Source of the DNA: Chitinophaga pinensis
GTDB taxonomy: Bacteria; Bacteroidota; Bacteroidia; Chitinophagales; Chitinophagaceae
Reading direction: 5' to 3'
DNA: 64,000 nucleotides
Assembly (NCBI GenBank): GCA_943368955.1
Contig: CALRLY020000009.1
Location: forward strand, 8,983 to 72,982
Within the stretch, counting starts at the first letter, position 1; each line of letters starts with the position of its first letter. A program made the position numbers and the translations under genes. Below are positions 50,209-64,000 of the stretch, piece after piece. Under the pieces are notes generated by a model that was given only the letters and a program-made list of their open reading frames with translations, did not search any database and had not been told where the DNA came from.

Positions 50209-50416
50209 TAACCAATTAAGAACATTGACATGGTTTTCGAATGCAAACGAGAATCATCTCTCCAACACGGCCTATCTTTCATATAATTATAATCAAAAGA
50301 AACCTGTTTTAAAGCTCAACGCAAAACTATTTTCTGTATCTATTTTGGTTGTATTTATAAAAGTCTCAATGTAGTATATTGTAACTAGATTCATTATTTT
50401 ACCACCAAAACACACT

Positions 50417-50992
50417 ATGGATAAGCTAACATCCCTCAATCTGTCATTCGACAGGATTCTCATTCAAATCATAGTTCCGGGGCTAACTGCAATTTTTCCT
50501 TATTTCCTGCTCTTTTTAAACCATCGCCCCAAAGCAAAAGATTACTTCTACAATAACCAATCTGTTACAATTACGGCCATTACCTTGATTTCTCTTATTG
50601 CTGGTATGTTATTGGAAAACTTTGGAGGCCGATTTGAGGTCTGTTATCTGGATAGGAGAATGCGAAAACGGAATTCAGATTTTGATGTAATCTGGAATAA
50701 GTACTTAAGTATATCCTACAGGGATGAGCCAATTGGCCAACGCTATTTGAGAAATATTCTACTTCGATTGAAGTTTGAAATTTCAATGGGTATTGCTATG
50801 ATACCAATGATGACAGGATTATTAATTCTCAACTATCAACTTCATATATTTGAATCCTTCTATTTGACCTTACTTTTAATGGTTCTTATGCCGGTAACCA
50901 TATCTATCTACTTACTTTTTTACGAGGCCCGGAGTAGTTCATTAATTTTGGATAAAACCAGAAGGTTATTGGTGGAAAATTTTAATACTTAA
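50417..50992 (+). CDS. Hypothetical integral membrane protein (about 4 TM)
   Basis: Two pairs of hydrophobic helices separated by a charged loop; no family recognised. Confidence 0.75.
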   Translation: MDKLTSLNLSFDRILIQIIVPGLTAIFPYFLLFLNHRPKAKDYFYNNQSVTITAITLISLIAGMLLENFGGRFEVCYLDRRMRKRNSDFDVIWNKYLSISYRDEPIGQRYLRNILLRLKFEISMGIAMIPMMTGLLILNYQLHIFESFYLTLLLMVLMPVTISIYLLFYEARSSSLILDKTRRLLVENFNT

Positions 50993-51071
50993 TGTGCTAG
51001 TAATTCTTCCGTTTAGGGTGTTCAATTTTTTTAATTGATTTTTTTGGAAGGCAGCTTTAATGGGGTAAATA

Positions 51072-52082
51072 ATGGCAACCAATAAACATGCTATAATAAG
51101 GTATCATGCTTTAGACCAGTGTTTTAGCAACCCTGGTCGTAGGTATTTTATTGACGACCTTATTACAGCGTGTGGTGATGCCTTATATGAATACACCGGA
51201 TCATCTGAAGGGGTAAAAAGGAGGCAGATTTTCGAGGATATTAAATTCATGGAAAGTGAGCAAGGTTGGTCCATACCACTGGAAAGATTGAAGGATGGGA
51301 AGCAGGTTTATTACAGATATTCTGACAAATCATTTTCAATCAAGAATCAGGCTGTTAATGAAGCAGAAGCCAAACAATTAAAGGAAACCTTGTCCATCCT
51401 TACAAGATTCAAGGGAATGCCTCAATTTGAATGGATGGAAGAAATGCATGTTAGGCTTGAATCAATCTTCAATTTTAAAAGTAACACAAATGTTATAGTT
51501 GGCTTCGAGCAAAATCAATACTTGAAAGGTCTCAACCATTTTTCAGAGTTATTCCATGCAATACAATATAAGAAAGTATTGTCCATTCAATACAGGGGTT
51601 TTAAACAAACTAAACCTTCACAGGTAAACTTTCACCCTTATTACTTGAAACAGTATAATAGTCGCTGGTTTCTTTTTGGTTACAATGAGAAGTACGACAA
51701 CATAAGCAATTTGGCTTTAGATCGTATTATTAATTTTAAACCAATCAATAAGAAATACCAGGATAACAAGACCATAAATTTTGAAGAGTATTTCGAAGAT
51801 GTTGTTGGGGTAACTGTTTCTAATCGGGCTTCGGTTGATAAAGTTCATCTTGAAATAGCCCCTTCACTTTGGCCTTATATTGAAAGCAAGCCAATTCACG
51901 GATCACAGCGTGTAGTCTCAAAGAAGGGTGGTGAAGTAGTAATAGAGCTTACAGTGCAGTTGAACTATGAATTAGTAACCACACTTTTTGCTTATGGCGA
52001 AGGGGTCAAAGTATTGCAACCAGACAGCTTGAAAAAGGAAATGATAACAAAGGCAAAAGCCTTAATAAACAAGTATTTATAA
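51072..52082 (+). CDS. WYL-domain transcriptional regulator (wHTH-WYL-WCX)
   Basis: N-terminal wHTH (RRQIFEDIKFME...YYRY); WYL core FHPYYLKQYNSRWFLFG...NLALDRII; C-terminal VKVLQPDSLK WCX motif. Confidence 0.92.
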   Translation: MATNKHAIIRYHALDQCFSNPGRRYFIDDLITACGDALYEYTGSSEGVKRRQIFEDIKFMESEQGWSIPLERLKDGKQVYYRYSDKSFSIKNQAVNEAEAKQLKETLSILTRFKGMPQFEWMEEMHVRLESIFNFKSNTNVIVGFEQNQYLKGLNHFSELFHAIQYKKVLSIQYRGFKQTKPSQVNFHPYYLKQYNSRWFLFGYNEKYDNISNLALDRIINFKPINKKYQDNKTINFEEYFEDVVGVTVSNRASVDKVHLEIAPSLWPYIESKPIHGSQRVVSKKGGEVVIELTVQLNYELVTTLFAYGEGVKVLQPDSLKKEMITKAKALINKYL

Positions 52083-52083
52083 C

Positions 52084-52120
52084 CTATGCATATACACTGC
52101 ACACATAGTATTCATCTTTG
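52084..52120 (+). promoter_or_regulatory. Internal promoter with a palindromic operator candidate ahead of the MTase-kinase gene
   Basis: CTATG...CATAG (52084-52108) containing TGCA-N7-TGCA; CATCTTTG -7-like box at 52113-52120. Confidence 0.45.
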
Positions 52121-52143
52121 CTTCGTCAATCACAAAATAGTAT

Positions 52144-54603
52144 ATGATGAAGGAATTTAAGATAGAAGAGATATTGCCAGTTGAAGCATTGAAGTCCAAA
52201 ATTTGGTCAATGTTTGATATTCTAAGAAGTGAACGAATCGCTTCAGAAGATTATCATGTGTTATTGTTCCTTCTGTCTGCATATAAAGACGGATTATTCA
52301 ATACTGAGATTCTCAATGAGAACAGTAATTTGAATGAAAGGCTTGTACGTTGTTTGCATAACTCTGAATCAGAGTTAACAAATCAATACAATGCAATACT
52401 TGCAACTTTTGAGCCGCTTGTGATGCGACTATCTGAAAACGGCACAAGGCATATAATAAGTGCATTGGGTGAATTGAACTTGGCAATATTGGATGAACAC
52501 TTTGCTGATATTTTTGATGCTGTTTTATATCGTATCACACAATCTCAAGGCAGATTTGGCGGTGAGTTTATACAGCCTGTTGAGTTGACTCGCTTCATAT
52601 GTGGCCTGGCCGAATTGCAACCCAATTCAAAGGTTTACAATCCTTTTGCCGGATTGGCTTCATTTGGTGTATACCTTGATCAAGGACAAGATTATTTTGG
52701 TCAGGAATTAAATCAAAAAACATGGGCTTTGGGGGCATTGCGTATAATGGCATATCAAAGACCCGGCACTTCAAGATATGTTTGTGACGACTCTATAAGT
52801 CATTGGCCGGCTACTTCAGAAAAATTTGATTTTATTGTAGCCAATCCTCCTTACGGAATGCGTCTTGGCAACCAATACAGGGAGATAGAACCTGAGTTCC
52901 GCACTATAGAACAGTTTCTGCTCGAAAAAGGGGTGCATTCTTTAAATGAAAAGGGCAAGCTGATTGCATTATTACCACAGGGAATTTTGTTTAGGGGTTT
53001 GCATGAGCAGCGTTTAAGAGAATTTCTCGTTGATGAGGATTTGATTGATACAATTATATCATTACCAGGGGGCTTGCTTTTAAATACAGGTATTCCATTA
53101 ATAATAATGGTATTGAATAAAAACAAGAAGATACCTGGCAAAGTTAGATTTGTAGATGCGAAGAAATTCGTTGATTCTAAGAGCCCGAGAGAAAGAGTGC
53201 TTAATGATTATGGGTTGAATAGTTTTCTGTATGGTAGTAAAAATGATTCTGATATTCTCCGTCTTGTTTCTAACGATGAGATAAGAGCATTCGATTATAA
53301 TCTTAGTGTCCCTCGTTATTTCCAAAAGCAGGTTGAGGGGGTGAAACTTGGTGAAATCATAGAGTTTGTTAGAGGCCAAAGAGTAAACTTGCCTCCAACA
53401 GGCAAGCTAATTCGTATTCGAGATTTAAAGGATGATAAAATTGATTTTCGTTTAGACGAAGCAACAATTGAAGATTTAGAACTGAGAAGGCCCGATATTC
53501 ATCAGATAACAGAATCATGCTTACTGTTAGCTGTTCGCTGGAAGACCTTAAAGCCCACATATTTCGAGTATAAAGGTGAAGCAATCTATCGAAGTCAGGA
53601 TATATTGTCTTTCAAAGTAAATGAGGCAATTGCAGATAAGGCATTTTTAATTAATGAGCTTCATGCTGATTATGTTCAGGAACAATTGGAGTCCTATCGT
53701 TTAGGGGCATCTGTAATGCCTTTTCTCCGAAAGGATGACCTGATGGAAGTTGTTATCAAACTGCCTTCTCTTCAGGAGCAAAGAGCGAAGGTTCAGGGTA
53801 TATATGAACTTTCCGATAAGATTAAGAGCCTGCAAGTTGAAAGGAATGCTTTGGCTCATGGTAAGTCACTAAAGCAATTCAGTGAGTTTGCATCGCTGAA
53901 ACACACACTTGGCAGGCCAAGACAAAATATCCTGGATTGGTCAGATAATCTGCTTCATTTTTTAAATGAAAAACGGGAAGGTTTTGAAGCATTGAATAAA
54001 GCCTTTATTGAGTTTTATGATACTGACATAATCTCCGCTTTAAAGGAAATTAAGAGGGATGTTAACTTCATAACTGATGTTCTCGAAAAGGGCGAAAATG
54101 GGTTTGTTTTAAGTGAATATGAGACAAACATTATTCCACTCTCAGATATCAATAGCCTGATTAATGAGCTTTCTAACAATGGATTCAACTTTAAAATCAA
54201 GAAATTGCCTTTAAAGTCGGAGAAGCTTAAAGACCGTGGCATTTCAGCAAACCGGATATTATTCAAAACACTTTTGGATAACATCTTAACGAATGCAAAT
54301 AAATATGCATTCAGTAAACGGGAGTCAGGAAATGAAGTGGTTGTGGAATTAACTGAAGTAGAGGATATTCTCTCTATGGAGGTGAAAAACAACGGGAAGC
54401 CATTTCCCAAAAACTTCGATCGGGAAAAGTTTATTACAAAATATTCCACGGCTGATACTGCTGCGGGTACTGGTTTAGGTGGCTACGACATACATCGCAT
54501 TGCCTCGCACTTTAGTAATCCTGATTGGGAATTGTCATTAAATGAAGATCCCATCTACCCGGTAAAATTCAAGTTTCAATTTCCAATTAAATTAATGAAT
54601 TGA
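52144..54603 (+). CDS. Fusion protein: HsdM-like N6-adenine methyltransferase, single HsdS-like TRD, histidine kinase (DHp + HATPase_c)
   Basis: HsdM_N-like KIWSMFDILR; GGEFIQP; motif I variant N166PFAGLAS; GQELN; motif IV N234PPY; LPGGLLLNTGIP; YNLSVPRY; TRD VKLGEI...IKLPSLQEQ; H-box SLKH587TLGRP; N-box DNILTNANKYA; KNNGKPF; GTGLGGY. Confidence 0.85.
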   Translation: MMKEFKIEEILPVEALKSKIWSMFDILRSERIASEDYHVLLFLLSAYKDGLFNTEILNENSNLNERLVRCLHNSESELTNQYNAILATFEPLVMRLSENGTRHIISALGELNLAILDEHFADIFDAVLYRITQSQGRFGGEFIQPVELTRFICGLAELQPNSKVYNPFAGLASFGVYLDQGQDYFGQELNQKTWALGALRIMAYQRPGTSRYVCDDSISHWPATSEKFDFIVANPPYGMRLGNQYREIEPEFRTIEQFLLEKGVHSLNEKGKLIALLPQGILFRGLHEQRLREFLVDEDLIDTIISLPGGLLLNTGIPLIIMVLNKNKKIPGKVRFVDAKKFVDSKSPRERVLNDYGLNSFLYGSKNDSDILRLVSNDEIRAFDYNLSVPRYFQKQVEGVKLGEIIEFVRGQRVNLPPTGKLIRIRDLKDDKIDFRLDEATIEDLELRRPDIHQITESCLLLAVRWKTLKPTYFEYKGEAIYRSQDILSFKVNEAIADKAFLINELHADYVQEQLESYRLGASVMPFLRKDDLMEVVIKLPSLQEQRAKVQGIYELSDKIKSLQVERNALAHGKSLKQFSEFASLKHTLGRPRQNILDWSDNLLHFLNEKREGFEALNKAFIEFYDTDIISALKEIKRDVNFITDVLEKGENGFVLSEYETNIIPLSDINSLINELSNNGFNFKIKKLPLKSEKLKDRGISANRILFKTLLDNILTNANKYAFSKRESGNEVVVELTEVEDILSMEVKNNGKPFPKNFDREKFITKYSTADTAAGTGLGGYDIHRIASHFSNPDWELSLNEDPIYPVKFKFQFPIKLMN

Positions 54604-54605
54604 TT

Positions 54606-55787
54606 ATGGAAGATATACTCTACAATATCCTTTGGATTGATGACGAACATGAATCACTTGCAGGCACAAAAGGGCGTGCAAAGAGAAATGGCATTATTCT
54701 GATACCTTTCAAATCGCTAAATAGCGGTATGTCTGAATTGGAAAACAATTATCCTTTTTATGACGGGGTGTTATTAGATGCTAAGTTTTTTGAGAACGAA
54801 GACGATGTGAAAGGCTCAGAGGATACCTATAATGTGCATCGGGCGAAGGAGCGATTATTACAGCTCAAAAAGAAATTTGAAGTATTCATTCTTACAGGTC
54901 AGGCGGAAGCATATGAGGATAAGACTTTCAAAAAAGCCTTCACTAAGGTTTACAAGAAAGGTAGTGATGACGAGATAGACCGTTTATTTGCCGATATTAA
55001 ATTAGCTGCAGCAACCCAGGAGGACACTCAAATACGCCATGCATACAAACGGGTTTTTGATGTTTGTACAGAAAAGTATATTGGAGAATTGGCAGGTCAG
55101 GATGTATTGAATCTCCTGAAGGTTAACGATGACTTAAACATCGACAATCACTTTAATGCTATCCGAAAAATCGTTGAGGATTTGTTTACAGCTTTCAGTA
55201 AGTATCGTTTACTTCCGCTTGAATTTGTTACACCTGGTGTTGCGTTAAATGAGAGTAGCAAATTTTTAGCAGGTAAAGCCGCTGACGGTACTCCTTTCAT
55301 TGAAAAGGGCTATCAGCATTCAGAAGAAACTCATTTGCCGTTGCTAATTGCTTCTTCTTTGAGAAGCATACTTTCTATAACGCAAGCAGGTTCTCACAGG
55401 TCTAATATCGATTTGCATGTTAAAACCATCAAAACCCCATTCCTTTTTAGGAGTGTGCTATTTCAACTTTTAGATGTGCTTACTTGGTTTAAGCTATATG
55501 TAGATTCAAACCCTAAGACAGAGAACTGGATAAGAATTGCCAATGTAGCTGAGTCTATACCTGAATCAGCTGAAGATTCCGTAATGGGCAAAGTGATAAA
55601 TGTAAACCAACAAAAGGGCTTTGCTTTTTTCAAGCCAGATGCAATTGGTGATAATGTTTTTATACCTCCACACTTGGTAGCAAATAATTCATTAGAAGAT
55701 CAAATGCCTGTTCGTGTGGTGACTGAAGAATACATTGATAACAGGACGGGAGAAACTAAAACAAGAGTAAAACGAATTGTGAACTAA
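54606..55787 (+). CDS. Response-regulator-like protein: receiver, helical (HEPN/DUF4145-like?) domain, cold-shock-like OB domain
   Basis: ILWIDD, GVLLD58, VFILTG and VYKK give an intact receiver; the middle domain has FNAIRKIVEDLF and ILSITQAGSH; the C-terminus has GKVINVNQQKGFAFF...DNVFIP. ATG lies 2 nt after the upstream stop (TTG 54600 is an alternative). Confidence 0.75.
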   Translation: MEDILYNILWIDDEHESLAGTKGRAKRNGIILIPFKSLNSGMSELENNYPFYDGVLLDAKFFENEDDVKGSEDTYNVHRAKERLLQLKKKFEVFILTGQAEAYEDKTFKKAFTKVYKKGSDDEIDRLFADIKLAAATQEDTQIRHAYKRVFDVCTEKYIGELAGQDVLNLLKVNDDLNIDNHFNAIRKIVEDLFTAFSKYRLLPLEFVTPGVALNESSKFLAGKAADGTPFIEKGYQHSEETHLPLLIASSLRSILSITQAGSHRSNIDLHVKTIKTPFLFRSVLFQLLDVLTWFKLYVDSNPKTENWIRIANVAESIPESAEDSVMGKVINVNQQKGFAFFKPDAIGDNVFIPPHLVANNSLEDQMPVRVVTEEYIDNRTGETKTRVKRIVN

Positions 55788-55797
55788 TAAAACAACT

Positions 55798-57360
55798 ATG
55801 GCAAGAGAATTAGAAAGAGATGAACTGCACCGCACCATCTGGCAAATAGCAAACGATTTGAGAGGCAGTGTTGATGGCTGGGATTTTAAAACCTATGTAT
55901 TGGGTATGTTATTCTATCGGTTCATTTCAGAGAACCTTACATCCTACATTAGTAAGGAGGAACAACGTACCGGCCAAAAGAACTTCAACTATGCCGATAT
56001 TTCGGATAAAGATGCTGAGTTGGGCAGAGTGGATACGGTGAAAGAGAAAGGCTTTTATATTCTACCATCTGAGTTGTTTGTAAACGTTCGTAAAAAGGCG
56101 AAGACAGATGAAAATCTTAATGAAACACTGAGCCGTGTTTTCAAAAATATTGAGCATTCAGCTAAAGGAACAGAAAGCGAAGGCGATCTGAAAGGCTTGT
56201 TCGATGATATGGATGTGAACAGTAATAAACTGGGTGCAACCGTTACCAAGCGTAATGAAGCACTGGTTAAAATATTGGATGCAATAGGCGACTTGAAATT
56301 AGGCGATTATCAGGACAATAGCATTGATGCCTTTGGCGATGCTTATGAGTTTCTGATGACCATGTATGCCAGCAATGCTGGAAAATCGGGCGGTGAATTT
56401 TTTACCCCTCAGGAAGTTTCTGAACTATTGGCCGAAATAACGGTTGTGGGCAAAAAACAGGTGAATAAAGTATATGACCCTGCTTGTGGTTCAGGCTCAC
56501 TGTTGTTGAAGTTTGCGAAAGTACTTGGTAAAGAAAATGTAAGGCAGGGATTTTTTGGGCAGGAGGTAAATATTACTACCTACAACCTTTGCCGCATCAA
56601 CATGTTTTTACACGACATCAATTATGAAAAATTTGATATTGCACATGGCGATACACTAACAGACCCCAGGCATTGGGATGATGAACCATTTGATGCCATT
56701 GTTTCCAATCCGCCTTATTCCATTAAATGGGAGGGCGATGCCAATCCTTTGTTGATTAACGACCCCCGTTTTTCACCTGCTGGGGTATTAGCCCCCAAAA
56801 GCAAAGCCGACCTTGCCTTTACCCTGCACATGCTGCATTGGCTTTCCACTTCGGGAACTGCCGCTATTGTTGAGTTTCCCGGGGTGTTGTACCGGGGTGG
56901 TGCGGAGCAGAAAATTCGCAAGTACCTGATTGATAACAATTATGTAGATGCGGTGATACAACTGCCTCCCGACCTGTTTTTTGGAACTACCATAGGCACT
57001 TGCATTATTGTATTGAAGAAAAGCAAGAAGGATAATGCTACCTTATTTATTGATGCATCAGCCGAGTTTGTTCGGAGTGGTAACAAGAACAAACTTACCG
57101 ATACCAACCGCAAGAGAATACTCAACGCTTATATTGAACGGAAATACGAAGCTCATTTTGCAAAGTTGGTATTGAACAGCGATATCGCTGAAAACGATTA
57201 CAATATTGCCGTAAGCAGTTATGTGGAGCAGGAAAACACTTCTGAGGAGGTGGACATTTCAACACTGAATGCCCATATTGCCGAGATAGTGATTAAGCAA
57301 AATAAGCTGCGTTCTGCTATTGATGAAATAATTGCTGATTTAGAAGGAGGTAGCTTATGA
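55798..57360 (+). CDS. hsdM: Type I restriction-modification methyltransferase subunit M
   Basis: IWQIANDLRGSVDGWDFK, GKSGGEFFTP, YDPACGSGSLL, IVSNPPY. Confidence 0.97.
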   Translation: MARELERDELHRTIWQIANDLRGSVDGWDFKTYVLGMLFYRFISENLTSYISKEEQRTGQKNFNYADISDKDAELGRVDTVKEKGFYILPSELFVNVRKKAKTDENLNETLSRVFKNIEHSAKGTESEGDLKGLFDDMDVNSNKLGATVTKRNEALVKILDAIGDLKLGDYQDNSIDAFGDAYEFLMTMYASNAGKSGGEFFTPQEVSELLAEITVVGKKQVNKVYDPACGSGSLLLKFAKVLGKENVRQGFFGQEVNITTYNLCRINMFLHDINYEKFDIAHGDTLTDPRHWDDEPFDAIVSNPPYSIKWEGDANPLLINDPRFSPAGVLAPKSKADLAFTLHMLHWLSTSGTAAIVEFPGVLYRGGAEQKIRKYLIDNNYVDAVIQLPPDLFFGTTIGTCIIVLKKSKKDNATLFIDASAEFVRSGNKNKLTDTNRKRILNAYIERKYEAHFAKLVLNSDIAENDYNIAVSSYVEQENTSEEVDISTLNAHIAEIVIKQNKLRSAIDEIIADLEGGSL

Positions 57361-58580
57361 GCAGGATATATAAATTGATACAAGAGCTTTGTCCTGATGG
57401 AGTTGAGTTTAGGTATTTAAATGAACTCGGCTTCTTTTACGGAGGTTTATCAGGAAAAACAAAAAGTGATTTTGAAAATGGCAATGCGAAGTTTATATCC
57501 TACATGAATATTTATTCAAATATTGCAGTTAAAACCGATGTAAACGATTTTGTAAATGTTGGAGAAAATGAAAATCAAAATAGAATTGAAATAGGAGATG
57601 TACTATTCACTGGTTCATCAGAAACACCAGATGAATGCGGCATGTCATCAGTTGTAACTAAAGATGTCATTGAACCATTGTATTTAAATAGTTTCTGTTT
57701 CGGATTTCGTTTGCATAATAAAGATCTCTTTTTACCTGATTTTTTGAAGTATCTTTTTAGGAGTGATGAACTAAGGAGGCAAATTGCTCAAACGGCAAGT
57801 GGAGTGACAAGATTCAATGTTTCTAAAAAGCGTTTTGGAAAATTGCTGATTCCTTTGCCACCACTTGAAGTTCAGGAAGAAATAGTCAAAACCCTCGATT
57901 TGTTCACTGAATTGGAAGCTGAATTGGAAGCTGAATTGGAAGCCAGGAAAACGCAATATACGCATTACAGAGATGCTTTACTTCGTTTTGAGGGTAAAGA
58001 AGTGGAATGGAAAACGTTGGGGGAATTAGGTAATGTTTGCATGTGCAAACGAGTTTTTAAAGAGGAAACTTCAACAAGCGGTGATATTCCTTTTTACAAA
58101 ATTGGAACTTTTGGCAAGAAACCAGACTCCTTCATTTCAAAGGAACTTTATCAAGAATATAGAAATAGATTTTCATTTCCTAAAAAGGGCGATATTCTAA
58201 TATCTGCCTCAGGGACAATTGGAAGAACAGTTATTTACGATGGGGAGCCAGCATATTTCCAAGACAGTAATATTGTATGGATAGATAATGACGAAACCTA
58301 TGTAACAAACAAATTCCTATTCCACTATTATAAAATTGTAAAGTGGCAAACAGATACAGGCGGAACAATTGTGAGGCTTTATAATGACAACATTAAAAAA
58401 ACTAGGATTCCAGTTCCATCTAAAAAAGAGCAAGAAAGAATCGTTGCGATTTTAGACAAATTCGATGCATTGGTAAATGATATTTCAATTGGTCTACCAG
58501 CAGAAATTGAAGGCCGTAGAAAGCAATACGAGTATTATCGCAACCGATTGTTGACATTTAAAGAAATAGCCAATGGATAA
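57357..58580 (+). CDS. hsdS: Type I RM specificity subunit S (two TRDs)
   Basis: LIQELCPDGVEF start; conserved PLPPLEVQEEIV...ELEAELEAELEARKTQY.YRD.LL.F; second repeat PVPSKKEQERIVAILDKF...RRKQYEYYRNRLLTF. Confidence 0.96.
   Translation: MSRIYKLIQELCPDGVEFRYLNELGFFYGGLSGKTKSDFENGNAKFISYMNIYSNIAVKTDVNDFVNVGENENQNRIEIGDVLFTGSSETPDECGMSSVVTKDVIEPLYLNSFCFGFRLHNKDLFLPDFLKYLFRSDELRRQIAQTASGVTRFNVSKKRFGKLLIPLPPLEVQEEIVKTLDLFTELEAELEAELEARKTQYTHYRDALLRFEGKEVEWKTLGELGNVCMCKRVFKEETSTSGDIPFYKIGTFGKKPDSFISKELYQEYRNRFSFPKKGDILISASGTIGRTVIYDGEPAYFQDSNIVWIDNDETYVTNKFLFHYYKIVKWQTDTGGTIVRLYNDNIKKTRIPVPSKKEQERIVAILDKFDALVNDISIGLPAEIEGRRKQYEYYRNRLLTFKEIANG
57907..57942 (+). repeat. 12-bp tandem repeat x3 in the hsdS central conserved region
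   Basis: (CTGAATTGGAAG)x3, encoding the ELEA repeats. Confidence 0.9.
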
Positions 58581-61500
58581 ATACTATATAGTTGCTGAAA
58601 ATCCGGAAAGTACCGTTGTAGCGGAGTATCAGACTCCCTACATACGAGAAACTGCCTACCAAACAGAAGACCAATTGGAAAAGGCATTTATCCAATTGCT
58701 GCAAGGTCAGGCTTATGATTATTTAACCATTACCAGTGAAGCAGCACTTACCAATAATCTTCGTTTGCAATTACAGAAGCTGAACAACTATACCTTCAGC
58801 GATAAAGAGTGGGATCATTTTTTTAAAAGCAAAATTGCGAACCCAAATAGCGGAATTGAAGAAAAAACATCTTTGATACAGGAAGACCATATTCAAATCC
58901 TGGATTGTGATGATGGCACAAAAAAGAACATTTACCTGCTGGATAAAACGAATATCCATAACAATCAATTGCAGGTCATTAATCAATATGAAGTTGCAGA
59001 TGGGCAGCGACCAAACCGGTATGATGTTACTATACTGGTAAACGGTTTACCATTGGTACATATTGAGTTAAAGAAAAGGGGTGTAGATATTAAAGAAGCC
59101 TTCAACCAGATTAACCGTTATAACCGTGAATCTTTCTGGAGTGGCTCAGGCTTGTTTGAGTATGTGCAATTATTCGTCATATCCAACGGAACTTATACTA
59201 AGTACTACAGCAACACCACAAGGTTTTCGCATGTAAAGGAACAAAGCCGCAGTGCTACAGTCAATAAGAAACGAACCAGTAACAGCTTTGAGTTTACTTC
59301 CTGGTGGGCAGATGCCAATAACCGTCCGATTACAGACCTGATGGATTTTGGTCGCACTTTTTTCGCCAAGCACACATTGTTAAATGTTCTTTGCAAGTAC
59401 TGCGTGTTTACAACAGACAAACTGTTATTGGCTATGCGTCCTTACCAGATTGTGGCAACAGAAAGGATTTTAGGACGAATCAATACAGCCAATAACTACA
59501 AAGCCTATGGTAGTATTAATGCCGGTGGGTATATATGGCATACAACAGGCAGCGGCAAAACGCTTACATCGTTCAAAACGGCACAATTAGCCAGCAAGTT
59601 GCCATTCATAACCAAAGTGTTGTTTGTGGTAGACAGGAAAGACCTGGACTATCAAACCATGAAGGAATATGATAAGTTTGAAAAGGGAGCTGCAAACAGT
59701 AATACCAACACTTCCATTCTAAAGAAGCAACTAAGCGACCCTAAGGCAAACATTATCATTACTACGATTCAGAAATTATCTATTCTGATAAAGAAAGAAA
59801 AGAATCACCTGGCCTTCAAAGAGTCGATTGTAATAATATTTGATGAATGCCATCGTTCGCAGTTTGGCGATATGCATAAGGCTATCACCAAAGCCTTTAA
59901 GAAATATTTTCTGTTCGGTTTTACCGGTACACCCATATTTGCTATCAATGCCAGCAGCAGCAACAAACCCGATTTAAAAACCACAGAACAGGCTTTTGGT
60001 CAAAAGCTGCACACTTATACCATTGTAGATGCCATCAATGATAAAAATGTGCTGCCGTTTCGTATTGACTACATACGAACAATGAAAGAGCAGGAAGAAA
60101 TTAAGGATGAAAAAGTTTGGGACATAGATAGAGAAAGGGCATTGGCAGCACCACAACGTATAAGCAATGTGGTAACTTATATTTTAGAACATTTTGACCA
60201 GAAGACAAAGCGAAACAGCAAACCTTACAACTTTACTTCCTTAAAGAACATTTACGAAGTTGTATCTGCGAAGGACCGTAACAAAATTGAAGAAGTAAAA
60301 CAGAAAATCAGACTCACAGGCTTCAATTCCATTTTTGCAGTGAGTTCTATCGACTTTGCTAAATTGTATTACAATGAGTTTAAAACGCAACAAAGCAGCT
60401 TGCCGGAATTACAGCGTTTGAAAGTGGCCACTATTTTCAGCTTTGGTGTAAACGATGATGATGAAGATGGGCTGCCTGATGAGAACTCAGAAGGTACAGA
60501 AGGCCTGAGTGTATCTGATAGAGATTTTCTGGAAAAAGCAATCAGCGATTACAACCAGATTTTCAAAACGAATTATGATACATCAACCGAAAAATTCCAG
60601 AACTACTATAAGGATGTATCCCTGCGAATGAAGAACAGGGAAATTGATTTACTTATTGTAGTAAATATGTTCCTGACGGGTTTTGATGCTACCACACTCA
60701 ATACACTTTGGGTAGATAAAAACCTTAGGTTACATGGCCTGCTACAGGCATATTCCAGAACCAACCGCATTTTAAATTCGGTAAAAACGTTTGGAAACAT
60801 TGTTTGCTTCAGAAACTTGGAGAAGGCTACCAATGAAAGTATCGCATTGTTTGGCGATAAAGAAGCCGGAGGTATTGTACTGCTAAAAACCTTTGATGAA
60901 TATTATAATGGCTATAAGGATGGTGAAAAAACATACCCTGGATACGTTTCACTCATCAACGAACTCATTGCCAAATTTCCGGTGGGTGAACAGATAATAG
61001 GAGAGCAAAATCAAAAAGCCTTTATCCGTTTGTATGGTTCCATTCTAAAAGCAAAAAATATACTCACCACTTTTGATGAATTTACAGGAAGGGAAATACT
61101 TAGTGAAAGGGATGTACAGGATTACCATAGCATGTACATCAATCTTTACCATGAGTTCCGAAACAGAAATACGGGTGATGCAGAAAATGTGAATGATGAT
61201 ATTGTTTTTGAAATGGAGTTGATAAAGCAAGTAGAGATCAATATCGACTACATTTTGGAACTCATCAGAAAATATCATGAAGGTCACCTAAGGGATAAGG
61301 AGATAATCATCAGTATCAACAAGGCAATTGATTCCAGTGTAGAATTACGGAACAAAAAAGACCTTATTGAAAAGTTCATTCAATCACTTACACCGGGCTC
61401 AAAGGTTACAGATGATTGGGAGAGTTTTGTTGAACAAAAAAAGCTGGAAGAATTAGATCAAATTATTGTTGAAGAAGAGCTTGATAAAGAAGAGACCTAC

Positions 61501-61689
61501 AAGTTTATCCACAATGCTTTTCGGGATGGATATGTACAAACTACCGGTACTGGATTAGCGAAGATTCTTCCACCGGTTTCGAGGTTTACACCTACTGGCG
61601 AAAGAACCCAAAAAAGAGAATCTGTTATTGAGAAAATTAAGGCATTCTTCAACAGGTTCTGGGATATTTCAGGTGGTATGTTGGAATAA
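58573..61689 (+). CDS. hsdR: Type I RM restriction subunit R (EcoR124I-like)
   Basis: Nuclease RYDVTILVNGLPLVHIELK...QINRY; helicase WHTTGSGKTLT, DECHRSQFG, GFTGTP, FLTGFDA, QAYSRTNR. Confidence 0.97.
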   Translation: MDKYYIVAENPESTVVAEYQTPYIRETAYQTEDQLEKAFIQLLQGQAYDYLTITSEAALTNNLRLQLQKLNNYTFSDKEWDHFFKSKIANPNSGIEEKTSLIQEDHIQILDCDDGTKKNIYLLDKTNIHNNQLQVINQYEVADGQRPNRYDVTILVNGLPLVHIELKKRGVDIKEAFNQINRYNRESFWSGSGLFEYVQLFVISNGTYTKYYSNTTRFSHVKEQSRSATVNKKRTSNSFEFTSWWADANNRPITDLMDFGRTFFAKHTLLNVLCKYCVFTTDKLLLAMRPYQIVATERILGRINTANNYKAYGSINAGGYIWHTTGSGKTLTSFKTAQLASKLPFITKVLFVVDRKDLDYQTMKEYDKFEKGAANSNTNTSILKKQLSDPKANIIITTIQKLSILIKKEKNHLAFKESIVIIFDECHRSQFGDMHKAITKAFKKYFLFGFTGTPIFAINASSSNKPDLKTTEQAFGQKLHTYTIVDAINDKNVLPFRIDYIRTMKEQEEIKDEKVWDIDRERALAAPQRISNVVTYILEHFDQKTKRNSKPYNFTSLKNIYEVVSAKDRNKIEEVKQKIRLTGFNSIFAVSSIDFAKLYYNEFKTQQSSLPELQRLKVATIFSFGVNDDDEDGLPDENSEGTEGLSVSDRDFLEKAISDYNQIFKTNYDTSTEKFQNYYKDVSLRMKNREIDLLIVVNMFLTGFDATTLNTLWVDKNLRLHGLLQAYSRTNRILNSVKTFGNIVCFRNLEKATNESIALFGDKEAGGIVLLKTFDEYYNGYKDGEKTYPGYVSLINELIAKFPVGEQIIGEQNQKAFIRLYGSILKAKNILTTFDEFTGREILSERDVQDYHSMYINLYHEFRNRNTGDAENVNDDIVFEMELIKQVEINIDYILELIRKYHEGHLRDKEIIISINKAIDSSVELRNKKDLIEKFIQSLTPGSKVTDDWESFVEQKKLEELDQIIVEEELDKEETYKFIHNAFRDGYVQTTGTGLAKILPPVSRFTPTGERTQKRESVIEKIKAFFNRFWDISGGMLE

Positions 61690-61741
61690 CTTTTCAAAGG
61701 CAAACCAACCTGAACATTTAATAATGAAATAAAAAACAGAT

Positions 61742-62653
61742 ATGGCACTATACATAAATCACACCGGCAAACTCAAGGAGGTAAAAGAAAAGCCCTTCAA
61801 ATTGGAAAAAGACATACAGAAAGTGTTTGAAGCCAATCTGTGTGATATTATGGGCTTGGAATTGGTGAAGAGTGAGTTTACCATCAAAAACAAGCGTATA
61901 GATACGTTGGCTTATGATACACAGGCTTCCGCCTTCATCATTATTGAGTACAAGCGGGACAAGAATATTAGTGTGGTGGACCAGGGTTTTACCTACCTGA
62001 GTCTGATGCTGGAAAACAAAGCTGATTTTATTGTAGAGTATAACGAAAGTCTGAAACGCAACCTGAAACGGGAGGATGTAGATTGGAGCCAAACAAGGGT
62101 TGCATTTGTATCTACCAATTTTACCGACAACCAGGTGCAGGCAACAAACTTCAAAGACATTGCCATTGAATTATGGGAGGTAAAACAGTTTGAGAATGAT
62201 ACCATCATGATCAATCCTGTCAAGAAATCAAATGCAGCCGAAAGTATCAAGCCATTAACCCAGAATAAGGAAGCACTTAAAAAGGTAACCGAAGAAATAA
62301 AGGTCTACACAGAGGAAGAACATCTGTCAAAAACCAGCGAAGCCATTGCCGAATTGTATGAGAAATTCAGGCAAGGAATACTGCAATTGGCTGATGAAAT
62401 CGAAATCAAGCCAAAGAAGATGGAAATAGGCTTTAGAAAAGACAGTAAAGTGTTTGCAGATATATGTATCCTGAAAAACTCCCTGAAAATGTGGATTAAC
62501 TTAAAAAAAGGAAAATTAGATGACCCCAAGCAGCTGGCAGAAGATGTTTCAGAAAAAGGGCATTGGGGCAATGGAGATTATCAATTACAGGTTGAGTCTG
62601 ATGTAAATCTTGAATACATTATGAGCTTGATAAAGCAAGCAATAAAGAAATAA
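61742..62653 (+). CDS. Predicted PD-(D/E)xK nuclease (NucS-like N-terminus) with DUF5655-like C-terminal domain
   Basis: LEKDIQ...RIDTLAYD...FIIIEYKRD...DQGFTY; C-terminal IEIKPKKMEIGF...KGHWGNGDY. Confidence 0.75.
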   Translation: MALYINHTGKLKEVKEKPFKLEKDIQKVFEANLCDIMGLELVKSEFTIKNKRIDTLAYDTQASAFIIIEYKRDKNISVVDQGFTYLSLMLENKADFIVEYNESLKRNLKREDVDWSQTRVAFVSTNFTDNQVQATNFKDIAIELWEVKQFENDTIMINPVKKSNAAESIKPLTQNKEALKKVTEEIKVYTEEEHLSKTSEAIAELYEKFRQGILQLADEIEIKPKKMEIGFRKDSKVFADICILKNSLKMWINLKKGKLDDPKQLAEDVSEKGHWGNGDYQLQVESDVNLEYIMSLIKQAIKK

Positions 62654-62710
62654 AAACATTTTCTTGATACTTGGAATGCAGCAAATGTTTTATCTAAAAT
62701 TGGTTTGTTT

Positions 62711-64000
62711 ATGACTGAAGTAAAAAAAGAAGATAATAAGTCTGAGTGCAAACTCTGGTTTTCTAGGTGGTCAAACTTTAATATGCAAGCTTACAGGGAT
62801 GACATGAGTCTTTCTGTAATTTGTTGGTCATTTGCATTTCTTGCAATAGTTGTAGTTTTCCAAACACCAATACAACAGTTTCTTAACTATTTCATAGTAG
62901 ACCCGTTTTTGTCTCTTTGTAAAAAGACATTCGTCGTTGATATTATTTTTTTAACATTATTATCCATATCGCTTATATTTTTTGTTCAGCAGATCAGAAA
63001 GCACAAGGTTCCAACATTAAACTCGTTGGTTTTATCTACTGTTATTTTCAGTTTGTATTATTTTGTATTTAAAAATGAGAATGGTTATGTGTTTTACCAT
63101 TTTACTATTGAATATTTAAATCAATTTACATACTCATTTGTCTCAATATTTAGTATGTTAATTTTAAGTATTTCATATCGTTTATATCAACTGCCACTTA
63201 CAAAAGGTCCTTCAAGGTTTTCATTCATAGAGGATAGTCCCTCAATAGAGAAATATAATGATGTATATAGTAGATCGTTATATGCGGAATCGGTGGCCAA
63301 ACATTTAGAAAGCACATCTACTGATGAATCATTTGCCGTTGGAGTAATAGGAGATTGGGGTTCGGGGAAAAGTGATTTTATGAATCGATTAAAGAAATGT
63401 TTGGAACAAAATAATGACAATATAGTATTTACATTTAATCCATGGCGGATTAATAAAGTAGATGGCATAGTTGAGGAGTTTTTTAATTCTTTATCAAAGC
63501 ATCTTGAACCTTTTAATCAATCAATAGGTAGTATAATTAACGATTATTCTTCCAGGGTTTTAAAAGGCGCAAGAGAGACTCAATTGAAGCTAATTGACGC
63601 CTTAATTGATAACTGGTTTCAAGAGAAAGATATTCATGAGAGATATAAAAAAATAAATGATTCTATAAAGGCTACGTCAAAGAGATTAGTTGTTTTCATA
63701 GATGACGTTGATCGTTTAACAGCAAAAGAGATCATAGAGGTTTTACGAATAATAAGAAATACTGCAAGTTTTGCTAACACATTTTTTATTGTTAGTATCG
63801 ATCAAAAATATATAATTGAAGTTTTAAAAAACACAAAAGAGATCACAAATGAAGAAGAATATCTTAAGAAAGTTTTTCAGCTTACGATCACTCTTCCGAC
63901 ATTTAAAAAGCAAGTATTTACCAATGAATTTAAGAAACACATTTTAACCTCTGATCTTTCAGAAAAAGAGAAACGTTTATTATCTTCTAACTTTTCAATT
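62711..64000 (+). CDS. KAP-family P-loop NTPase with N-terminal TM helices, truncated by the window edge
   Basis: My translation from ATG 62711 is open to the window end: about 4 hydrophobic helices, Walker A GVIGDWGSGKS, FNPW, Walker B LVVFIDDVDRL, YLKKVFQL. Confidence 0.9.
   Translation, partial: MTEVKKEDNKSECKLWFSRWSNFNMQAYRDDMSLSVICWSFAFLAIVVVFQTPIQQFLNYFIVDPFLSLCKKTFVVDIIFLTLLSISLIFFVQQIRKHKVPTLNSLVLSTVIFSLYYFVFKNENGYVFYHFTIEYLNQFTYSFVSIFSMLILSISYRLYQLPLTKGPSRFSFIEDSPSIEKYNDVYSRSLYAESVAKHLESTSTDESFAVGVIGDWGSGKSDFMNRLKKCLEQNNDNIVFTFNPWRINKVDGIVEEFFNSLSKHLEPFNQSIGSIINDYSSRVLKGARETQLKLIDALIDNWFQEKDIHERYKKINDSIKATSKRLVVFIDDVDRLTAKEIIEVLRIIRNTASFANTFFIVSIDQKYIIEVLKNTKEITNEEEYLKKVFQLTITLPTFKKQVFTNEFKKHILTSDLSEKEKRLLSSNFSI

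Follow-up and report, generated by a model that had tools for sequence, protein, structure and literature searches.

A histidine kinase fused to a type I methylase-like module, and its receiver partner, at the head of restriction-modification operons in Bacteroidota

Introduction

What purpose is served by a protein that begins as a DNA methylase and ends as a histidine kinase? Such a protein is encoded at positions 52144-54603 of a 64,000-nucleotide stretch of the Chitinophaga pinensis genome (GenBank assembly GCA_943368955.1, contig CALRLY020000009.1, positions 8,983 to 72,982 of the forward strand; the whole stretch is referred to here as the window), where a single chain of 819 residues combines an HsdM-like N6-adenine methylase, one HsdS-type target-recognition domain (TRD) and a histidine kinase. 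Sequence, fold and comparative genomics agree in identifying the products of this fusion gene and of the gene directly behind it (54606-55787) as a sensor kinase and a response regulator, and in showing that selection acts on the residues of the kinase and not on the catalytic residues of the methylase. Together with a WYL regulator, the kinase and its receiver-bearing partner form a cassette that stands at the head of unrelated type I restriction-modification (R-M) operons in ~80% of loci. The best explanation of these features, held here at a probability of roughly 0.6, is a cytoplasmic two-component system with a methylase-TRD sensor that guards or monitors type I restriction, a system whose trigger and output we infer. 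A search of the literature found no published description of the methylase-TRD-kinase fusion or its partner, and no paper naming both domains; as a two-component switch the pair is undescribed, and it adds a new input and a new output to known kinds of two-component defence and R-M decoy.

Domain composition of the fusion protein

The original prediction, made from the DNA alone, described this 819-residue product as a three-part fusion of an HsdM-like methylase, a single TRD and a kinase, an architecture that is conserved and is borne out by Pfam, PADLOC, alignment with the neighbouring HsdM, and Foldseek. Residues 60-396 align with that HsdM at 27% identity (E 6e-30), and the alignment recovers the motif pairs on which the prediction had drawn, namely GGEFIQP/GGEFFTP, a shared NPPY and YNLSVPRY/YNIAVSSY. 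The S-adenosylmethionine (SAM) motifs read NPFAGLASF and GQELN, and motif IV is NPPY at residues 234-237, while the Pfam HsdM_N model is undetected at the N-terminus of the protein. PADLOC Specificity_I models span residues 396-605 (E 1e-9), with a weak Pfam Methylase_S match at 474-564 (20.8 bits, under the cut-off of 22). The TRD is too diverged from the neighbouring HsdS for pairwise BLAST (E 0.078), and the alignment between the two stops at a common P-S-x-x-EQ motif (LPSLQEQ versus VPSKKEQ). Toward the C-terminus, Pfam HATPase_c covers residues 705-788, at 28.3 bits against a cut-off of 26.4.

The AlphaFold2 (AF2) monomer model of the fusion has a predicted local distance difference test (pLDDT) score of 83. 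Searched as a whole with Foldseek, it is matched best by 7EEW, a single-chain M-S methylase crystallised with the anti-restriction protein Ocr, and then by structures of HsdM, of PacII M1M2S and of EcoKI. No transmembrane segment is present, as had been claimed; the most hydrophobic stretch of the chain (304-322) is a conserved strand motif of the methylase.

The fusion belongs to a sizeable family. A word-indexed search returned 923 homologues, the best 120 of which are almost all ~819 residues long and carry the same Pfam domains, and an exhaustive search of 50%-identity representatives returned at least 150 matches, 135 of them full length (780-940 residues) and 33-56% identical to the window protein. 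The family is accordingly taken as at least 135 clusters at 50% identity, and the residue counts given below for representatives refer to these 135. Carriers include 34 species genomes, essentially all from Bacteroidota, and among 400 evenly sampled Bacteroidota genomes the fusion occurs in 3, each of another genus. This patchy spread, combined with a location in a low-GC island (37% GC at 51072-64000 versus 48% at 1-50400), is that of a mobile defence gene.

The fusion is shortened or interrupted in four loci: it measures 777 residues in L010 and 658 in L017, both of which have an intact partner gene, and survives as fragments in L034 and L035. Either decay or an assembly error in a metagenome-assembled genome (MAG) is possible. 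A cassette in a MAG labelled Christensenellaceae (L016) is 61-76% identical to those of Bacteroidota and probably reflects a mis-binned contig rather than a transfer into Firmicutes.

The kinase module

The putative phospho-acceptor, H587, sits in the sequence SLKHTLGRPRQNILDW and is followed by an N-box (DNILTNANKY) and a G2 box (GTGLGG). In the family, the H-box takes the form HTLGRP(R/L)QNI, similar to the HisKA motif HELRTPLxxI. The G1 box reads NNG, with Asn replacing the usual Asp, a substitution shared with the structurally resolved kinase ThkA (3a0t). The H-box and the HATPase_c domain with N, G1 and G2 boxes had both been predicted, and their conservation upholds them: H587, N717, G777 and G779 are invariant in all 135 representatives, H587 likewise across 119 close homologues, and N749 and G751 are kept in 131 and 133 representatives, respectively. 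At N-box position 713, where the GHL ATPases bear their catalytic Glu, 122 representatives have Asn and only 2 have Glu.

A profile of the C-terminal 264 residues, searched against the PDB, retrieves the catalytic ATP-binding (CA) domains of histidine kinases (YycG, HprS, ThkA, FixL and KdpD) along with the related GHKL protein kinase RsbW, and returns no match to the ATPases MORC, MutL, GyrB or Hsp90. Pfam HATPase_c matches 30 of 30 orthologues (best E 2e-10), and the NCBIfam matches to residues 640-789, all of them weak, are exclusively histidine kinases such as PorY, VanS and CpxA. The AF2 model places helices at 576-588, 590-609, 615-625 and 629-650, ahead of an α/β domain at 662-817, and positions H587 at the junction between the first two of these helices. 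Given the invariant His, the N-box of histidine-kinase type and a receiver protein encoded immediately downstream, the C-terminus is, on the strength of its sequence, a genuine histidine kinase rather than a MORC or GHL ATPase, and is predicted to autophosphorylate.

The downstream response regulator

The most likely start codon of the partner gene is the ATG at 54606, located 2 nucleotides past the stop codon of the kinase. The protein has a divergent receiver (REC) domain at its N-terminus, in which the phospho-acceptor D58 (codon 54777-54779) forms part of a quintet, D12, D13, D58, T97 and K118, that is invariant in 32 orthologues. The quintet is also kept in three further partners at 28-33% identity, with either T or S at position 97 over the total of 35 sequences. 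The AF2 model (pLDDT 80) resolves a (βα)5 domain at residues 6-146, a helical domain at 148-300 and an oligonucleotide-binding (OB) barrel at 326-392. Foldseek matches in the PDB are PorX, LvrB, FixJ, KdpE, PhoB and Spo0F, with template-modelling scores of 0.70-0.77 against isolated REC domains. The C-terminus, the one region of the partner recognized by Pfam, matches the CspA-type cold-shock proteins and Pfam S1CSD-TOTE-2; in most orthologues it likewise matches S1CSD-TOTE-2, as well as OB_RNB and phage models for binding of single-stranded DNA (ssDNA).

The helical domain between these two features invariant R187, F220, H264 and L280. Its assignment as a HEPN/DUF4145 domain was rejected: there is no Pfam match in the 32 orthologues and no PF13643 match in the genome of the window itself; the hhalign probability is 0.4%, compared to 1.3% for a REC control, a weak test made with a four-sequence profile; and the HEPN Rx4-6H motif is absent, R187 and H264 lying 77 residues apart. 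PADLOC gives the partner only a marginal PDC-M16B match (E 0.008).

The strongest argument for a phosphorelay is the pairing of the two genes. The partner is the next gene after the kinase in all 34 close loci and all 3 distant ones, hence in 37 of 37, and the identities of kinase and partner co-vary across loci (Spearman 0.79, p 1e-49).

The methylase-TRD module

The pocket for SAM is well preserved in the family, with N166 kept in 133 of the representatives, P167 in 134, E188 in 129, D229 in 131 and G170 in at least 129. The catalytic motif has fared differently, as the Asn of NPPY (N234) is retained in 60 of 135 and replaced by S in 24, T in 16 and H in 14, while the aromatic residue of the motif has become L or I in 24; N234 has been lost even in 14 of the 119 homologues at 69% identity or above. 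The fusion carries one TRD and one conserved helix, compared to the two variable TRDs and two conserved helices of HsdS, and its TRD, which equals the methylase core in conservation, is not hypervariable. The closest genome (L002) serves as an internal control for TRD variability: the fusion is 99% identical there and HsdM and HsdR are 98% identical, whereas the genuine HsdS is only 40% identical. Retention of the NPPY Asn in fewer than half of the representatives and the conservation of the TRD indicate that methyl transfer and variable specificity are not what the family is kept for, and the methylase-TRD module looks like a sensor, not a working enzyme.

The connector helix

Between the TRD and the kinase lies the conserved helix of HsdS, whose Q546 (in PSLQEQ) is invariant in 135 of 135 representatives. 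Its distance to H587 is 41 residues in 116 of 135 and 39 in 14, and every other distance between motifs in the family varies widely. A family-averaged hydrophobic stripe of helical periodicity keeps a constant phase over residues 543-610, also across the short HGKS segment. The original prediction had the HsdS helix run without a break into the dimerization and histidine phosphotransfer (DHp) helices and double as the signalling helix. Its claim of continuity stands in part, as the AF2 monomer interrupts the helix, at low confidence, over residues 572-575 (HGKS), while the 41-residue spacing and the stripe in phase favour an uninterrupted helix. The claim of a signalling role agrees with both the fixed length and the phase of the stripe, which support it. 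The conserved helices of HsdS pack against each other in antiparallel fashion and DHp helices in parallel, and a continuous connector therefore argues against a quaternary arrangement resembling M2S1.

Association with type I restriction-modification

The features of the locus are collected in Table 1. In 34 of 37 loci a WYL homologue occurs no more than 10 kb from the kinase, and in about 30 it is the gene immediately before the kinase, in the same orientation; the PDB matches of the window copy are regulators of PafBC type. On the other side, the gene that follows the partner is a canonical HsdM in 18 of 28 loci and HsdR in 3 of 28, with 22 Methylase_S open reading frames among the next genes and intergenic gaps that are often -3 to 14 nucleotides. 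Of the 30 loci with enough sequence, 24 have an HsdM-like gene in the 10 kb downstream.

Table 1. Features of the cassette and of the genes downstream in the window
Feature	Position	Strand	Remarks
WYL-WCX transcriptional regulator (BrxR/CapW/PafBC-like)	51072-52082	+	first cassette gene; Pfam WYL 1.9e-13, WCX 1.7e-10; PADLOC WYL 2e-28
Sensor histidine kinase, HsdM-like methylase + single-TRD input module	52144-54603	+	819 aa, open frame
N-terminal helical domain, residues 1-117	52144-52494	+	partly aligns with HsdM N-terminal region; AF2 helices 7-134
N6-adenine methylase fold, residues 118-396	52495-53331	+	Pfam N6_Mtase E 4e-42
Single HsdS-type TRD, residues 397-542	53332-53769	+	PADLOC Specificity_I 1e-9; Pfam Methylase_S 5e-4
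HsdS conserved-region helix (PSLQEQ...), residues 543-575	53770-53868	+	fixed-length connector; AF2 helix 543-571
DHp-like helical bundle, residues 576-650	53869-54093	+	H-box SLKHTLGRPRQNI; phospho-acceptor H587 = codon 53902-53904
CA domain (HATPase_c), residues 662-817	54127-54594	+	N-box N713/N717; G1 N749-N750-G751; G2 G775-G780
Cognate response regulator, 393 aa	54606-55787	+	REC 1-146, helical domain 147-310, cold-shock/S1-type OB fold 320-393
Canonical HsdM of adjacent type I R-M	55798-57360	+	Pfam HsdM_N + N6_Mtase, 9e-115
Canonical HsdS, two TRDs	57357-58580	+	Pfam Methylase_S, two stretches, 4.5e-49
HsdR restriction subunit	58573-61689	+	Pfam HSDR_N, ResIII/SWI2_SNF2, T1R_D3, EcoR124_C; PADLOC REase_I
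PDC-S18 (PADLOC candidate defence family), 303 aa	61742-62653		directly after hsdR; end-to-end match E 5e-139
KAP-family P-loop NTPase	62705-64000		runs off window end; E 3e-41; continues defence island

The adjacent HsdM proteins have a median mutual identity of 30% and diverge without correlation to the divergence of the fusion (rho 0.01, p 0.88), a result that rules out co-inheritance with the adjacent R-M system as the cause of the linkage. The cassette has accordingly been joined repeatedly to unrelated type I systems, which indicates a functional link with type I restriction in general.

Proposed mechanism

The input module would be a paralogue of the type I methylase core, formed of an HsdM-like SAM-binding fold and one HsdS-type TRD, and the fixed-length helix from the HsdS conserved region would couple it to the DHp helix bearing H587 and to the ATP-binding domain of histidine-kinase type. 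A conformational change in the methylase-TRD module may then shift the balance of kinase and phosphatase activities, with the phosphoryl group passing from H587 to D58 of the partner. The cold-shock-type OB fold of the partner is likely to bind RNA or ssDNA, on which the phosphorylated regulator would act, and the WYL repressor and the pair would constitute a mobile three-gene cassette that heads the type I R-M operons of many unrelated families. The most likely role of the pair is to guard or back up type I restriction, with the methylase-TRD module serving as a sensor or decoy, not as a working modification enzyme. The output would be either an RNA- or ssDNA-directed effector or a regulator.

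Candidate triggers could include DNA-mimic anti-restriction proteins of the Ocr or ArdA kind, loss of SAM, or an abnormal DNA ligand. That the trigger is the sensing of anti-restriction factors by a decoy is put forward only tentatively. Under such a scheme, Ocr or ArdA would bind the methylase-TRD module, or SAM-destroying enzymes would empty its conserved SAM pocket, the HsdS-derived helix would relay the signal to the DHp, and the armed receiver-OB protein would attack or sequester RNA or ssDNA. It is possible, if doubtful at present, that this is the first histidine kinase to use a decoy of the type I methylase core as its input, arming a receiver-OB protein against RNA or ssDNA in support of the adjacent type I system.

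The signals of two-component systems are, almost without exception, small molecules, membrane states or light. If the proposal is true, a DNA-methylase and DNA-recognition module acting as the sensor of a kinase would represent a new class of input, and a receiver protein with a cold-shock OB output a new class of output. A guard based on a phosphorelay would add to the few known guards, namely PrrC, PARIS and Ronin, and the presence of the cassette on many unrelated type I systems may show how bacteria monitor the integrity of restriction. The family, at 135 clusters or more, is large enough for structure-function work.

Points against the proposal and rival explanations

Several observations weigh against a phosphorelay-based guard. 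On the side of the kinase, HisKA-type Pfam models match none of 30 orthologues at E values up to 10, and the residue after H587 is T or S and not acidic; the DHp of the fusion is divergent in both of these respects, and its region is of low confidence in the AF2 monomer, with pLDDT below 50 at residues 567-592. The receiver of the partner is divergent as well, Pfam Response_reg matching none of the 32 partner orthologues at E values up to 10, and no catalytic fold was recognized in the partner output domain by Pfam or by Foldseek searches of PDB and viral structures, which return only REC and cold-shock domains. NPPY is intact in the window copy, such that this particular fusion may itself methylate, judging from the motif. 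Finally, ~20% of the loci with enough flanking sequence (L004, L009, L012, L013, L027 and L029) are without an adjacent type I system, and the cassette may therefore work on its own.

The original prediction put the same parts to another use, that of an M2S-like DNA reader wired to a kinase. As a reader of foreign DNA, the fusion would form an M2S1-like homodimer that clamps on a fixed, probably palindromic bipartite site and flips the target adenine into the NPPY pocket, with the kinase turned on when unmodified, non-self DNA is bound. The methylase-TRD fold matches the DNA-bound structures of M2S1, TaqI and CamA, the NPPY motif of the window copy is intact, a conserved TRD could mean one conserved target, and the fixed-length connector is compatible with allosteric coupling. 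The model is nevertheless disfavoured, and fairly unlikely, as the TRD is conserved unlike those of working HsdS proteins and most of the family has a degenerate NPPY, which together speak against sequence-specific reading of the methylation state as the input. The catalytic Asn is lost in 75 of 135 representatives, such that most members of the family could not mark self DNA, and in 24 the aromatic residue is L or I; nor can the adjacent R-M systems supply the self mark, since their specificities are unrelated and variable. A continuous parallel connector is, moreover, hard to fit with antiparallel packing of HsdS type. Quite unlikely too is an Ambrosia-like controller of R-M operon expression, in which the kinase would sense infection or a cellular state and the phosphorylated cold-shock regulator, jointly with the WYL repressor, would raise or lower the expression of hsdMSR, acting as an RNA chaperone, antiterminator or translational regulator. 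Cold-shock proteins are known antiterminators, the cassette is co-oriented and tightly packed with hsdM, hsdS and hsdR, the partner has no nuclease fold recognizable by Pfam, Foldseek or hhalign, and Ambrosia controls its RM-like genes through an XRE regulator and a two-component module. However, only 10 nucleotides separate the stop codon of the partner from the start of hsdM, and terminator-like sites in the operon are not above chance, leaving no obvious RNA element to act on; the scan behind this covered intrinsic terminators and sigma-70 promoters over 50300-63000, neither of them above chance, and did not extend to the promoter types of Bacteroidota. A conserved RNA target is also unlikely because the adjacent R-M systems are unrelated in sequence, ~20% of loci have no adjacent R-M system at all, and the invariant Arg/His pair in the middle domain of the partner hints at catalysis.

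The remaining alternatives dispense with the phosphorelay or with the protein itself. A reading of the protein as an ATP-dependent orphan methylase, whose GHKL/MORC-type C-terminus would remodel DNA or the methylase, has in its favour that Pfam HATPase_c spans both kinases and GHL ATPases and that HATPase_c_2 matches weakly in 20 of 30 orthologues, and GHKL ATPases in R-M contexts were reportedly described by Iyer, Abhiman and Aravind in 2008. This alternative is rejected as very improbable, given the His in a HisKA-like H-box that never varies among the representatives, the Asn instead of Glu at the GHL catalytic position (713), PDB profile matches that are all histidine kinases or the related kinase RsbW, and a receiver protein with an invariant Asp that is translationally coupled downstream at every locus. 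The possibility that a methylase gene and a kinase gene were joined by an assembly or frameshift error, for which no favourable point was found, has a practically negligible chance of being correct, as the same frame of ~819 residues recurs in more than 900 proteins from independent assemblies, in 34 species genomes and in at least 135 clusters; the fusion is one real chain, as first proposed.

Comparison with known systems

The input module has its nearest structural relatives in the type I methylase core (HsdM2-HsdS1, as in EcoKI and EcoR124I) and in the single-chain methylase 7EEW from Vibrio vulnificus YJ016, with which it shares the HsdM fold, the SAM motifs, NPPY, and an HsdS-type TRD followed by the PSLQEQ helix. 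The fusion differs from the type I core in its one non-hypervariable TRD, in a catalytic motif that is degenerate across the family, in the lack of a region matching the last ~40 residues of the neighbouring HsdM (the alignment ends at 479 of 520), in the continuation of the conserved helix into a histidine kinase, and in having no HsdR of its own.

PrrC of EcoprrI and PARIS are guards triggered by anti-restriction factors and provide a backup layer when type I restriction is attacked. They share no components with the cassette and make use of an anticodon nuclease or an ABC-ATPase/TOPRIM pair, not of a phosphorelay. The closest precedent for the sensing logic of the fusion is Ronin (HsdM, HsdS and RonA; Silas et al., 10.1101/2023.04.06.535777), in which Ocr, ArdA and Aop1 set off an HsdMS decoy independently of its NPPF motif. 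Ronin commonly shares a genome with complete type I systems. Like Ronin, the fusion has a nuclease-free, R-M-like M/S module that would serve as a sensor whose activity is independent of motif IV catalysis. Whereas Ronin releases a 61-residue membrane toxin held by HsdMS, the M/S module of the fusion is joined to a kinase with predicted phosphotransfer to a REC-OB protein. Ronin belongs to a different phylum, and its relation to the fusion is taken as general HsdM/S homology.

That two-component modules act in phage defence is shown by Detocs and Ambrosia. Ambrosia comprises the XRE regulator AbrR, the N6-methylase AbrA, the HATPase kinase AbrB, the REC-winged-helix-turn-helix protein AbrC and the HNH protein AbrD (10.1101/2025.09.30.679545), and thus resembles the present locus in bringing a repressor, an N6-methylase, a histidine kinase, a response regulator and a restriction nuclease into one defence cluster. 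By its description, it differs from the cassette in architecture at every position, with separate genes for the methylase and the kinase, a winged helix-turn-helix output, a type IV HNH nuclease and an XRE repressor instead of WYL, and it is found in Gammaproteobacteria. Detocs consists of the TPR-kinase DtcA, the buffer receiver DtcB and the REC-PNP effector DtcC (10.1101/2023.01.24.525353). It, too, is a two-component phosphorelay used as an anti-phage system and has a response regulator whose output is not DNA-binding, but it senses through a TPR domain in place of a methylase-TRD module, acts through an ATP nucleosidase and has a third gene for a buffer receiver, whereas the cassette has no stand-alone receiver gene.

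Genomic neighbourhood

The low-GC island of the window begins right after a series of housekeeping genes, rimP-nusA-infB, and genes for an outer-membrane β-barrel protein, HflX and a Rieske protein. Between these genes and the WYL gene, close to the latter, is an open reading frame of 191 residues (50417-50992) with a sub-threshold NCBIfam match to BA5345 (E 8e-4) and no Pfam or PADLOC match. At the other end, the operon continues past hsdR into the genes for PDC-S18 and the KAP NTPase, the former product carrying DUF5655 and a weak nuclease-like N-terminus (NucS/HSDR_N_2). PADLOC matches to mad2 and mad5 of the MADS system were set aside as general HsdM/HsdS homology, since the genuine HsdM scores much higher. 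The HsdS of the window and its counterpart in L002 (L002:15214-16446), 40% identical amid neighbours at 98-99%, mark a recent swap of specificity through the TRDs.

Related loci vary in their own additions. In two loci that lack downstream type I genes (L012:6900-7997 and L013:6027-7124), a second, distant methylase-like gene is found upstream, with 21% identity to the fusion over 40% of the length. The Lacihabitans loci L001 and L019 have TIR/ThsB-like genes, DUF6088 and AbiEii between hsdS and hsdR, and a JGI contig bears a CBASS set (SMODS, bacterial HORMA, AAA and NUDIX) after the hsdR of its linked type I operon.

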